Origin: Octopus vulgaris
Lineage: Eukaryota
Length of the DNA: 64,000 nucleotides
Direction: 5' to 3'
Assembly (NCBI GenBank): GCA_951406725.2
Contig: OX597822.1
Span: forward strand, 5,766,001 to 5,830,000
Shown: positions 10,250-57,904 of the stretch, one piece after another
How positions within the stretch are numbered: position 1 is the first letter of the stretch
Layout: each line of letters opens with the position of its first letter
Notes under the pieces: generated by a model
What the model saw: only the letters and a program-made list of their open reading frames with translations
The model's database searches: none
What the model was told of the DNA's origin: nothing
Position numbers and translations under genes: made by a program

Positions 10250-10820
10250 CATTAATTAAAATCTTAGGGTAGCAAGAATATTTATTGAAAAATTCTTAGT
10301 TACCAGTGGTCTGGCAAGAAAGGAAAAATTAGTCAATAGACTATATATTATTCAGAGAATAATACAGTGTACATTCAAACACAAAAGAGATACCCGACGA
10401 ATAGGATATCTGACTCACTAGAAAGAGCAGTTAAAACTCAAAGCCACAAATTGTTGTAATCCCGAAAGTGATTGAAAAATAAAAAAACTTTTACCTTAAT
10501 CCTAGACCCTGCAAGGTTTCTGCAGACTTAAATACAGATTGAAATAAAATAATCTCAGTCTTGCTCATTTATAGCTCCATGTCTATGCGTTCAGTCTTGG
10601 CAATCTACTGAGGACGCAGCGCCAGATATAGGCCGAAGTTATTTTATTTCAATCTGTATTTAAGTCTGCAGAAACCTTGCAGGGTCTAGGATAAGGGTAA
10701 AAGTTTTTTTTACTTTTCAATCACTTTCGGAATTACAACAATTGGTAGCTTGGAGTTTTAACTGCTCTTTCTAGCGAGTCAGATATCCTACTCTTCGGGT
10801 ATCTCTTTTATGTTTGAATT
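10250..10820. mobile_element. Non-coding Penelope-pLTR/retrozyme-like element with ~180-bp inverted arms
   Basis: Arms 10373-10552 and 10639-10819 are inverted complements. The left part is homologous to 11985-12230. TA-rich runs on both sides. Contains a hammerhead. Confidence 0.7.
10604..10690 (+). ncRNA. Type I hammerhead ribozyme (extended stem II)
   Basis: TCTA-CTGAGGA(10608-10614)-cGCAG...CTGCa-GAAA(10671)-CCTTGCAGG-GTC|TAGG. Stem III ACCTTGCAGGGT is near-palindromic. Predicted cleavage after C10686. Stem I is short (4 bp) and the stem II closing pair is a C-A mismatch. Confidence 0.65.
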
Positions 10821-10840
10821 TTTTATATATATATATATAT

Positions 10841-10995
10841 ATATTAGAGGGAAAAGGACAACAAAAACCAAGGCAGGACAGGTGTCTCAAGTCATTTAAA
10901 ATATCTAATTGCCTTTTAAATATTCTAATTAATTATTCTAATTTACTTGAGTTGCCTGTCCTGCCTTGGTTTCTGTTGTCCTTTTCTCCTAATAT
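10841..10995. repeat. ~50-bp-arm hairpin next to (TA)n
   Basis: GAAAAGGACAACAAAAACCAAGGCAGGACAGG...CTCAAGT pairs with ACTTGAG...CCTGTCCTGCCTTGGTTTCTGTTGTCCTTTTC. Confidence 0.85.
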
Positions 10996-11550
10996 AACAT
11001 TTACCTGCTAACTCAGAAGCCTAATATGAATCCCTTATTCCAGCCTCAGCTGTGAACTTAGAACCTAATTAATGACCAATTATAGCACTTACTCAGCATA
11101 CCTTTCCGTTTTTTAGATCAGTGAACTAAACCCTTCATACTCTCTCTCTATGTTTCTCTCTTCCCCTCTCTCTCTATATATGTATGTATGTATGTGTGTA
11201 TATATCTTTCATAATTTAACCTTTCATCACTTTGTACAAAGCTGTTTTACTTTCTACTGTAGTCCAATTAGTCAAAGGGAGTCTTAGTCTTGTGAGTTTC
11301 AAGGGAACTTCAATAGTGCTAGTACCATGAAAAAAAAAAGGTCTTAGCACTTTCTGTAAAGCAAGTAATTTAGGAAAGGCATTGGGCCATAGAAGCCATG
11401 CCAAAGCAGACATCAGAAAAAGATGTAGTCCTCCTACTGTCAGACTCTGTCAAACCATCCAACCCAAAGGTACACATTAAAAGATCATGAGAGATGAAGA
11501 TGATGGTGATGATATATATATAAATAAATATATATATATAAATATATATA

Positions 11551-11885
11551 TCATCATCATCATCACCATCATCATTTAATATCTGTTGTCCATGCTGGCA
11601 TGGATTGGACGGTTTGACCAGGGCTGGTAAGCTGAGGGGTTGCACCAGGCTCCAGTTTGATTTGGCATGGTTTATACAGCTGGATACCCTTCCTAATACC
11701 AACCACTCTGAGAGTGTAATGGGTGCTTTTATGTGTCACTGGCATGGGTGGTAGTTGTGTGATGCCAGTATCTGCTATGACTACAATTTCACTTGGCTTG
11801 ATGGGTCTTCTACTCAAGCACAGCATATTGCCAAATGTCTCCAAAGTCATTTGTCTTTGCCTACGTGAGGCCCAATGTTTGGAAG
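11551..11885 (-). mobile_element. RTE 3' end
   Basis: (CAT)n tail at 11551, conserved 3' UTR and ORF end GAGACATTTGGCAATATGCTGTGCTTGAG. TA runs nearby on both sides. Confidence 0.8.
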
Positions 11886-11976
11886 ATGCTTTTTCTGTGC
11901 CACCGGTACAGGTGCTAGTACATGACACCAGCATCAAAAACATTGCCTCTTATATATATATATATATATATATATA

Positions 11977-54820: not shown

Positions 54821-56130
54821 CATCATCATCGTTTAACGTCCACTTTCCATGCTGGCAGGGGTTGGATGGTTTGACTGAGGGCTGGTGAGCCAGATGACTG
54901 CACCAGGCTCCAATCCAATTTGGCAGAGTTTCTACAGCTTGATGCCCTTCCTAACACCAACCACTCCGAGAGTGTAGTGGGTGCTTTTACATGCCACCTG
55001 CACGAGGGCCAGTCAGGTGGAACTGGCGATGACCTCACTCGAATGCTGTTTTATCATGTGTCACTGGCACAAGTGCCAGTAAGGCGATGCAGGTAACGAT
55101 CATGCTTGAATGGTGCTTATTACGTGCCACTGGCATGGGGGCCAGTCAGCAGCCCTGGCAACCATAATGCTTGGATGGTGCTCTTAATGTTTCACTAGCA
55201 GGGATGCCAGTCAGGCAGTGCTGTCATCGGCCACGTCTGTGAATATGTTTTCGATTTCACATGCCTCAACAGGTCTTCGCAAGGAGAGTTTAGTGTCCAA
55301 TAGGTGGGCTGGTTACACCACTGGAATAGGCCATGGGTTATGGTCTCACTTGGCTTGCCAGGTCTTCTCAGGCACAGCATATTTCCAAAGGTCTCGGTCA
55401 CTAGTCATTGCCTTGGTGAGGCCTAATGTTCGAAGGTCGTGCTTCACCACCTCATCCCAGGTCTTCCTGGGTCTACCTCTTCCACAGATTCTCTGAAGCG
55501 CTAGGGTGTGACACTTTTTCACATGGCTATCCTCATCCATTCTCACCACATGACCGTACCAGTGCAGTCATCTCTCTTGCACACCACATCTGAAGCTTCT
55601 TAGGTCCAACTTTTTCTCTCAAGGCACTTACACTCAGTCATGTATGCACACTGACATTACACATCCAGCAGAGCATACTGGCTTCATTCCTTGCAAGCTT
55701 ACACATGTCCTTGGCAGTCACAGCCCATGTTCCACTGCCATATAGCATGGCTGTTTGTACACTTGTGTCATACAGTTTACCTTTTATTCTGAGCGAGAAG
55801 CCCTTTGTCACCAGCAGAGGTAGGAGCTCTCTGAACTTTGCCCAGGCTATTCTTATTCTAGCAGCTACGCTTTCAGAGCATCCACCCCGACTACTGACTT
55901 GGTCACCTAGGTAATGGAAGCTGTCAACTATTTGTAGTTTTTCTCCCTGGAATGTGGCGGAAGTTGTTCTCTGCACATTTTCAGTGTTTATTGCACCTGA
56001 GCATCTGCCACATACAAAAACTATCTTCCCAGTTAGCCTTCCTTTGATTTTGCTGCACCTCTTATGTGTCCATAGCTTACACTGGGTACATCTTATAGAG
56101 TTTCTACCTACGCCTTTGCTACAGATTGAG
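54821..56130 (-). mobile_element. RTE LINE 3' ~1.3 kb with a PHD-like Cys/His insertion
   Basis: SICSKGVG..NSIRCTQCKLWTHKRCSKIKGRL..FVCGRC then VDSFHYLGD, AWAKFRELLP, LYGSGTW and GRGRPRKTWDEVVKHD, followed by 3' UTR and (GAT)n tail. Confidence 0.92.
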
Positions 56131-56192
56131 TTGGGCCGTCAAAACATAGGTTACAAATTATGTTCTGGAAATTATGTTTTGTAAACGACAGA

Positions 56193-56267
56193 CTATGCTG
56201 ACGATCTTGCAGATATTTGCATGTCCATATACGTAAATATTAACTAGAGAAACTAATTAGTACGTAG
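56193..56267 (+). ncRNA. Type I hammerhead ribozyme (extended stem II)
   Basis: CTATG-CTGACGA(56198)-TCTtG...CtAGA-GAAA(56249)-CTAATTA-GTA|CGTAG. Perfectly palindromic stem III ACTAATTAGT, 5-bp stem I with one G-U. Lies in a non-coding segment (56131-56431) ending at (TA)n. Confidence 0.8.
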
Positions 56268-56606
56268 GTAATAGTTTTTATTTCGTATAGTTTCATTTGT
56301 CTTGCTTATTTTTACATTTTGGTTTTCTGCTGAGATTTTTCTTGAGAACTCATTCTTCGTGGTAATGGCGATTTGACGTCTATGTTTAGCATATAGGCTG
56401 TCTACTTTAGTGGTCAGTCTTCTAAATTTTGTATATATATATATATATATATATATATATATATATATATATATATATATATATATATATATATATATAT
56501 ATATATATATATATATAGGGAAAGTTTACGAAAAAACAAAAGACGAAGACAGATGGTGTACAAAACAAACAGATGTATTAGTATAATGCTCAGGAATAGA
56601 AAAAGT

Positions 56607-56642
56607 CTTTTACGTTTCGAGCCTACGCTCTTCTTCAGAAAG
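56607..56642 (-). ncRNA. Minimal Penelope-type hammerhead ribozyme
   Basis: Minus strand: CTTT-CTGAAGA-a-GAGC gtag GCTC-GAAA-C-GTA|AAAG. Stem III is reduced to the palindrome ACGT, with one extra A after A9. Lies in segment 56518-56705, which ends at (TA)n. Confidence 0.72.
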
Positions 56643-57904
56643 GGACACAGAAGAAACAAGGATAGAAAAAAAATGTGTGTAGTGGCTAACAATCTATCAT
56701 GGCGGTAGGTATGTATGCATTTATGAATGTGAGTGTCTGTGTGGCTGGTGACATTCCATGGCTTTACTTGTGCAAAATGGGGAATGATGTTTCTATTCTT
56801 TGTTGTCACTTTCTGGTTGCTCAATGGTTTCAAAGAATTATTTGAAAAAAAAAAAAACAGGTATGGGTTGATGACAATGATACCACTTGATTTAAAATCT
56901 GGCTTCAGGTATGCCCCTGTGAAACCCATGCTAGCAGAGAAAAACATAGACATCAAAAGGACGAATGAATAAAATAATTTATGGCTTTTGAAAATCTTTG
57001 CTAATGCCTAAACAGCTTGCAAAACATTTTATCCATAATTTTCTTTTACACGAAACCACGATTAGCTTTTAACTTCCTGTATGGCAATGTACTGCACAGG
57101 ATTGCATGCTTCAGTTAGTCCTGAAACACACAATATCACAAAAAATATACTAACCTTGGTTACTTTCATTGTAGACGATGTTTGGGACTCTCTAATGTAA
57201 GGGAGAAAATGCTAAAACCTTTCTGTCATTCATTTCTGTTCTGTAATGGAGTTATCGAAAGACTTGTAACTTTGGACTTCTTATCAACAAACTATGCAAT
57301 AATTTCTATATTCTTTCAAATTTTTAAACTTTAAAAAACCCAGTTCACTCTAACTTTCCACACAAAGCATGCCAATATTATTACTTGATGTTATGTGTAC
57401 AATGGAGTTAACAGGATTATGAACCATTAGTATATTCTGGGCTTATAAAGTTGTAAGTCAGCTAGTGTGTGACTTAATTTCAATTCTTGATACCTCACAG
57501 TCATTTTACGGTTTCTATTAATACAAATGGAAGCCAGGGTCTCTCTCTCTTTCTCTCTCTGTATGACCATCGTCCGAAGGGAAATAGCACTAATCTTCTT
57601 GGCTTGATTACAATTCACAAATTAGAATGTTACTTGTCATGACAAGTTATATTGAGAATATACTCTTGCCACTGTTGGTAGTATTAGATAATATTACATC
57701 CATTATTAATTGACGGCTAAACAGTTTTACTGTTACTGGTAACATAGATTTATTGCAAATATGCAAATGAGAAGTATATTCTAATATATTTATTTTAAAA
57801 TTATTTTTCTTTTAAAAATTGATATATATTTTATTATTCAACATTTAGCAGCAAATTTGAAAAAAGTAACCTTATATTATTGTCTTCTTCATATGACAAC
57901 AACT

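Follow-up and report, generated by a model that had tools for sequence, protein, structure and literature searches.

What are the hammerhead ribozyme motifs that lie beside TA repeats in this part of the octopus genome, and what moves the repeats that carry them? The window analysed here is a stretch of 64,000 nt from Octopus vulgaris (contig OX597822.1, positions 5,766,001 to 5,830,000). It is 37.7% GC, has abundant microsatellites and holds five such repeats, here named A to E. All five carry type-I hammerhead folds; self-cleavage is a prediction from the fold. They were probably copied into (TA)n in trans by the reverse transcriptase (RT) and GIY-YIG endonuclease of autonomous Penelope-like elements (PLEs); the repeats themselves have no open reading frame (ORF) for either. 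Families A to D are further examples of a kind that is already described. What appears to be new is the mass-amplified family E, with U at position 6 of the ribozyme core, and the density and variety of the motifs.

The motifs were located with a descriptor comprising the core, three stems, a palindromic stem III (at most one G.U pair) and an NUH cleavage triplet. It matched the window exactly five times, at the same five complete type-I folds and stem III sequences that a preliminary description of this DNA had named. All five copies have the core CUGANGA...GAAA, an NUH triplet and three helices around the core that are open at stem I. Local dinucleotide shuffles of the window gave no match in 44 of 50 cases, one match in five and two matches in one; thus the five folds exceed chance. 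The base of stem II is a C.A mismatch in hammerhead A, and hammerhead E has one additional A after A9. Stem III of A to D is predicted at −9 to −19 kcal/mol as a duplex and at 0 to −1.7 kcal/mol as a hairpin, and that of C, D and E is predicted to be stable only as a duplex. No hammerhead family was present among the 150 of 199 Rfam matches listed, a list dominated by microsatellite matches to microRNA models.

Each of the five has at least 40 related loci in the 2.8 Gb genome, across many contigs and most chromosomes. We scored the best 40 loci per family and fetched 20 of them, plus some longer stretches, as best matches to queries spanning the ribozyme; the fetched sets contain the window's own copy for all families except D. 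The candidate numbers returned by the genome search (951–3386) are not copy numbers. In A to D the repeat is a closed unit, i.e., its upstream neighbour is the unit's own 3′ end. The unit periods are ∼489–494 nt in A, 482–488 nt in B, ∼352 nt in C and 534–569 nt in D. The units are 31–40% GC and the longest ATG frame is 53 aa. Tandem copies of the retrozyme type occur in B (loci L146–L148), C (L027) and D (L099) and were not seen among the 20 A loci, two of which (L071 and L072) look like one duplicated locus. The B arrays run to 2.5–4.5 units, and in one array of 4.46 units the adjacent units are 99.5% alike. Contigs from four sequencing runs, none on record as RNA and three of them RNA by guess only, also cover unit B including its head-to-tail joint; since the joint is found in genomic tandems as well, these contigs are uninformative on circular RNA. 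Folded as circles, the units are more stable than their shuffles (z −2.9 to −7.1, 20 shuffles).

Families A and B are homologous. They share 61% global identity (z = 17, or 10.5 without the ribozyme), and five pairs in stems I and II have changed on both sides while the core and stem III were kept. A common origin of C and D with A/B, or with each other, was considered and dropped (z −1.5 to 0.5 over the 250 nt past the cleavage site). Thus there are five families in four unrelated contexts, which narrows the earlier count of at least four. The other structural observations made at that time hold for the window: none of the host elements has a credible ORF, all five touch TA-type sequence, three (A, B and C) include an inverted copy, and the unit lengths given then, 482 and 354 nt, agree with those of B and C.

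To describe the insertions, 83 A to D loci were mapped onto their units. The 5′ ends are scattered. The 3′ ends fall into two clusters per family, ∼130–176 and ∼220–266 nt past the cleavage site, and TA repeats adjoin them in 60 of the 83 loci (72%, versus 8.3% at random positions), least often in C (8/20). An inverted piece is found at the 5′ junction of 41 loci, and 38 loci are longer than one unit. For most B insertions, one of the two 3′ sites terminates the direct arm and the other the inverted arm, as in the one-sided tail known from PLEs (PMC8557442). Families A to D therefore show the PLE insertion anatomy, with truncated 5′ ends, partial tandems, an inverted copy on the 5′ side, a tail at one end and a microsatellite target, and are best read as non-autonomous PLEs, that is, non-LTR retrozymes (Table 1). 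Exactly at the inversion junction of the window's C element (54120–54243) lies a fragment of an abundant dispersed repeat, probably D12/D18, left by either a later insertion or a template switch.

Table 1. Hammerhead elements and their parts in the window. Unit positions are counted from the cleavage site; H17 is the predicted cleavage base.
Feature	Position	Strand	Description
Element A, whole	10247..10819		
A, inverted piece	10247..10561	-	unit 433-251; hammerhead incomplete (3′ half only); (TA)n 10204-10249 at its end
A, direct piece	10569..10819	+	unit 372-131; complete hammerhead; TA repeats after
Hammerhead A	10604..10690	+	core from 10608; C.A at stem II base; long loop II; 12-nt near-palindromic stem III; GUC; H17 = 10686
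Element B, whole	11976..12750		
B, direct	11976..12663	-	1.43 tandem units of a 482-nt monomer; 3′ end at (TA)n 11951-11981
Hammerhead B	12204..12302	-	core from 12295; 7-bp stem I; 5-bp stem II plus ∼50-nt extension; stem III as in A; GUA; H17 = 12211
B, inverted 5′ piece	12664..12750	+	unit 65-150; runs into (TA)n 12735-12771
Element C, whole	53739..54331		
C, direct	53739..54119	-	1.08 units of a ∼352-nt monomer
Hammerhead C	53908..53951	-	core from 53945; 6-bp stem I; 5-bp stem II; 8-nt palindromic stem III; GUC; H17 = 53914
C, inverted piece	54244..54331	+	unit 139-226; other repeat between it and the direct piece; then (TA)n 54339-54387
Element D, whole	56162..56437	+	5′-truncated, retaining about half of the ∼534-nt monomer; (TA)n tract at 3′ end
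Hammerhead D	56193..56267	+	core from 56198; 5-bp stem I; long loop II; 10-nt palindromic stem III, diverged from family majority; GUA; H17 = 56262
(TA)43 tract	56432..56517	.	3′ junction common to D and E, which face each other
Element E, whole	56518..56705	-	full length, 188 nt; both ends fixed
Hammerhead E	56607..56642	-	core from 56638; minimal PLE type with extra A after A9; 4-bp stems I and II; ACGU stem III; GUA; H17 = 56611; A6 here, U6 in the family

Family E does not fit the tandem-monomer retrozyme model. All 20 fetched copies are ∼188 nt with fixed 5′ and 3′ ends, none is inverted and none exceeds one unit; where copies stand in tandem, TA spacers separate them. Apart from the TA target, which follows the 3′ end in 19 of the 20 copies (95%), E lacks the insertion anatomy of PLEs, i.e., inversion and length over one unit. 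Several copies (L042–L060) start with AG(T/A)CGCCATG, some with TC or GC before it, a start that we take to resemble a Pol II initiator motif. A tRNA-like head was not recovered, as ARAGORN found no tRNA in the window, and the program can miss diverged heads of short interspersed elements (SINEs). The preliminary description treated E as one more canonical hammerhead element and missed both the fixed-end structure and the mostly non-canonical core of the family. The CUGANGA/GAAA core reported then is present in all five window copies, but it is atypical for family E. The core of the family is CUGU-N-GA (A6U): of the exact 28-nt matches in the genome, 16,703 have U6 and 197 have A6, and reversed controls gave none. 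The window copy is the rare A6 form, the only one among the 20 fetched. Genome-wide there are at least 24,124 A6U copies in several subfamilies, and a search that requires CUGANGA would, by the exact-motif count, miss ∼99% of E. Among metagenome contigs, none matched the U6 motif exactly.

A rival account of E, which we regard as unlikely, takes U6 to be a dead mutation that was carried along as a SINE-like master succeeded, with the hammerhead no longer of any importance. Changes at position 6 are reported to lower activity strongly (PMC3088659; PMC7151607), and the fixed ends of E need no cleavage. In addition, the sample of 17 E copies, taken by BLAST from 922 kb not selected for E, is biased towards conservation of the ribozyme, since each match was required to cover it. 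These copies are only 73–93% identical to the window copy, yet the hammerhead box is near-invariant across the subfamilies except at positions 7 and 17, which are free in hammerheads. U6 is found in 16 of the 17, N7 in three states and H17 in two. Among the first 100 listed matches, counted by hand, N7 is U in 42, C in 25, A in 23 and G in 10, and H17 is A in 73, U in 26 and G in one; genome-wide, N7 takes all four states. Loop II varies far less than N7. The CpG sites of E show only mild symmetric decay, and CpG decay was rejected as the source of the N7 variation since G8 is kept in 17/17 copies. Positions 7 and 17 are free while U6 stays, which suggests that the E fold is under selection, and we infer that several source lineages retained the fold with U6. 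We offer, as a tentative proposal, that E is a PLE-driven SINE of more than 24,000 copies with an unreported natural A6U hammerhead, possibly selected as a catalytically throttled fold recognised by the PLE RT.

A sister family of E keeps A6. It differs from E by one compensated pair in stem I, with 90/90 cells paired, a statistically weak result as it comes from 10 related sequences. This A6/U4C family (L159, L161, L178, L180 and L182) has a 3-nt loop II and five copies in 400 kb.

The machinery proposed to move A to E is encoded in this genome. A GIY-YIG profile search (PF01541) scored the best 150 of 6136 candidates and listed 148, and 45 PLE loci were fetched. Many of the matches listed lie in identical 781-aa open frames. 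The encoded protein matches RVT_1 and GIY-YIG, and a CX4CxxC linker precedes its nuclease. Such a linker is known in Neptune/Nematis PLEs and has been proposed to aid microsatellite targeting (PMC8557442). The terminal repeat of the autonomous PLEs ends in (TA)n, the same target that A to D use, and in 12 of 30 loci it contains a U3-A8 hammerhead downstream of the ORF. In a young autonomous PLE (L135:768-4468; L132–L138) with such a hammerhead, an upstream ORF1 overlaps the RT-endonuclease frame; ORF1 (up to 479 aa) had no Pfam match above the cut-off. A second PLE family (L140, L141) carries a U4C-core hammerhead in its terminal repeat.

It could be argued that A to E are mere terminal repeats (pLTRs) of heavily 5′-truncated autonomous PLEs and not elements in their own right, a case that the preliminary description had allowed for. 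Truncated PLE copies that leave single hammerheads are common (PMC4209133), rare full-length copies could be missed when 40 loci per family are scored and 20 fetched, and E was never seen as a permuted tandem. We consider this improbable. What precedes the unit in A to D is its own 3′ end, as also in the 2.5–4.5-unit B arrays, and the 5′ end of E is fixed, not scattered. No PLE ORF lies upstream in sense at any of the 100 family loci of A to E (PLE protein fragments are present at five). It is still less probable that an RTE-type or other long interspersed element (LINE), or satellite amplification at the DNA level, spreads the elements and that their link with (TA)n reflects an AT-microsatellite-rich genome: a LINE RT fragment and very common TA tracts are present in the window, and the mobilising enzyme of non-LTR retrozymes is without direct demonstration (PMC7229834), but copies are dispersed over most chromosomes, TA adjoins the 3′ end far above the 8% background in A to D and in E alike, and the combination of partial tandems, inverted 5′ pieces and a tail on one side has been described for PLEs (PMC8557442).

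Mobilisation by PLE enzymes thus stays our preferred reading. For A to D we favour, with good confidence and from the anatomy of the DNA only, a retrozyme cycle. A tandem locus would be transcribed by read-through, and the hammerheads would cut the transcript to unit-length RNA able to circularise, helped by stem III pairing between neighbouring units. The PLE endonuclease would nick (TA)n, and the RT would prime at one of the two AU-rich sites, ∼130–176 or 220–266 nt past the cleavage site, annealed to the nicked (TA)n. Copying of a circular or multimeric template could then give insertions of 0.5–4.5 units with 5′ truncation and an inverted 5′ piece. Family E would instead be transcribed, SINE-like, from a fixed start into linear RNA, and priming would take place in (TA)n at the 3′ end of that RNA. 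Since a cut in mid-element would destroy a template with fixed ends, selection may favour a slow core; the A6U core would most likely be a throttled version whose fold is still selected, perhaps because the RT recognises it or because dimers still cleave to some extent. The Penelope RT/GIY-YIG mobilisation put forward in the preliminary description accordingly stands for A to D, as ORF-less closed units with PLE anatomy in a genome with intact PLEs that use the same target, but in its tandem-monomer form it misfits E.

Several observations weigh against the reading of A to E as functional, PLE-driven ribozyme elements. The core is broken in 22 of the 80 fetched A to D copies (3/20 in A, 3/20 in B, 8/20 in C and 8/20 in D). 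In the window, no insertion of the five contains a tandem pair of complete hammerheads. Minimum free energy folding yields stems I and II only for B and E; in isolation, A, C and D adopt a fold other than the hammerhead. The loci were chosen by ribozyme-spanning queries, and thus copies ending at the cleavage site are under-sampled. Families A and B are modest, with 219 exact genome matches to their 16-nt stem III motif (three in the control). PLE machinery is present, yet the terminal repeats in the 45 PLE loci compared have no DNA similarity to A to E, the few matches being separate neighbours, and none of these PLEs can be named as their autonomous partner. Elsewhere, the minimal hammerheads of PLEs cleave poorly (PMC4209133), and only one of nine predicted retrozyme dimers from Xenopus cleaved in vitro (bioRxiv 10.64898/2026.07.22.740005).

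The density of one motif per 13 kb noted earlier holds locally. In forty 10-kb stretches taken at round coordinates and blind to content (400 kb), we found 27 hammerhead-like motifs in 17 stretches, and ten shuffles gave 0–2. The cores comprise 10 canonical, 10 U3-A8, four U4C and three A6U, or one canonical motif per 40 kb and one motif per 15 kb with variant cores included. Scaled by hand with the between-stretch variance, this gives an estimated ∼100,000–260,000 motifs genome-wide with variant cores, ∼70,000 of the canonical type. As a check of the scaling, the three A6U matches predict ∼21,000 copies versus the exact count of 24,124. The 1.05 Mb examined in all, which is enriched for these elements, contains 164 motifs; these form 30 clusters, of which 14 were seen at more than one locus. 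A loose pattern search returned 13,032 matches (control 1,455), led by another abundant minimal-hammerhead family. In the first matches listed, that family has a canonical core and often stands in inverted pairs 100–400 nt apart; it is not among the window's five.

Other repeats surround these elements. LINE-like fragments lie at 6535–7591, 17679–18200 and 55638–56138, with an RVT_1 match at 6645–7004 and a PHD-like match at 55641–56138; element D begins just past the last of them. At least two abundant SINE-like dispersed repeats occur between 14667 and 63898 (repeat families D11–D20, plus 20587–20951 / 46182–46546), with 7–9 window copies each, often adjoining (TA)n or (CA)n. A decayed C-terminal PLE ORF fragment from the GIY-YIG region lies at 3558–4181 on the forward strand. 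It is interrupted by stops and 31% identical to the intact 781-aa protein, and the descriptor scan found no hammerhead downstream of it. About 1.5 kb before the window, the intact PLE family is represented by a 5′-truncated copy whose open frame spans 652 aa (L131:2505-4460).

If these estimates are right, this genome holds ∼100,000 hammerheads of at least 14 families. The estimated total is far above the ∼5,000–9,000 motifs of mussel, coral and Xenopus and near the 120,000 of axolotl, with the caveat that the descriptors differ (PMC7229834; PMC4209133). The enzyme that mobilises animal retrozymes has so far only been inferred, and this genome offers a direct test set of intact PLE proteins, young B arrays and a natural A6/U6 pair of sister families. 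The role of the hammerhead in endonuclease-bearing PLEs has been stated as unclear (PMC8557442). If E is indeed a throttled fold recognised by the RT, PLE hammerheads would be cis-recognition modules too, not only scissors.

In the literature on octopus hammerheads, A6U and CUGUNGA we found no apparent description of these families or of a natural U6 core, the one A6U match listed being a paper on twister; Dfam and Repbase lay outside this comparison, and prior description is possible. A 2026 octopus repeat annotation reports active Penelope families, with no mention of ribozymes or hammerheads in its main text (PMC13282606). Related hammerheads have been reviewed (PMC6765202). The closest known systems to A to D are the animal non-LTR retrozymes, which form circular RNA in coral, mussel and axolotl (PMC7229834) and have been proposed as non-autonomous PLE derivatives (bioRxiv 10.64898/2026.07.22.740005). 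Like them, the octopus families combine a type-I hammerhead with low GC, a length of a few hundred nt and the lack of an ORF, occur as monomers to multimers and co-occur with autonomous PLEs. In A, B and D, by contrast, stem II carries a long extension, and the units of 482–534 nt exceed the 170–400 nt of the invertebrate circles described, while being within the 51–972 bp of the 2026 preprint. Also in contrast to retrozyme arrays, most copies here, known as DNA sequence, are dispersed, truncated and inverted (TA)n insertions.

In their insertions, the octopus families resemble Neptune/Nematis-type PLEs with a C-terminal endonuclease and non-autonomous elements of Chlamys such as MRC1, which likewise have partial tandems, an inverted 5′-truncated copy, a tail at one end and microsatellite targets (PMC8557442). 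The intact octopus PLE shares the extra Cys linker before GIY-YIG with the Neptune/Nematis type. The tail here is ∼80–90 nt versus 30–40 bp in the elements of that paper, and, unlike the non-autonomous elements of Chlamys, A to E have no 3′-end similarity to the autonomous families sampled.

Hammerhead E is most like the minimal hammerheads of the terminal repeats of metazoan PLEs (PMC4209133), with an extra base between positions 9 and 10.1, G10.1-C11.1, a short stem I and a palindromic stem III. It differs from them in its CUGU-N-GA core, which is not among the representative motifs in the searched supplement text of that paper, and in being a fixed-end, ORF-less element of 188 nt. Natural core variants are known, i.e., U3-A8, U4C and the A6C of phage Bcep176, which retains a low, Mn-preferring activity (PMC3088659; PMC7151607). 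The first two are present in this genome too. Like A6C, the core of E is a natural change at position 6; A6C is known from one phage locus, whereas A6U is represented here, at the level of sequence, by at least 24,124 copies in several subfamilies.

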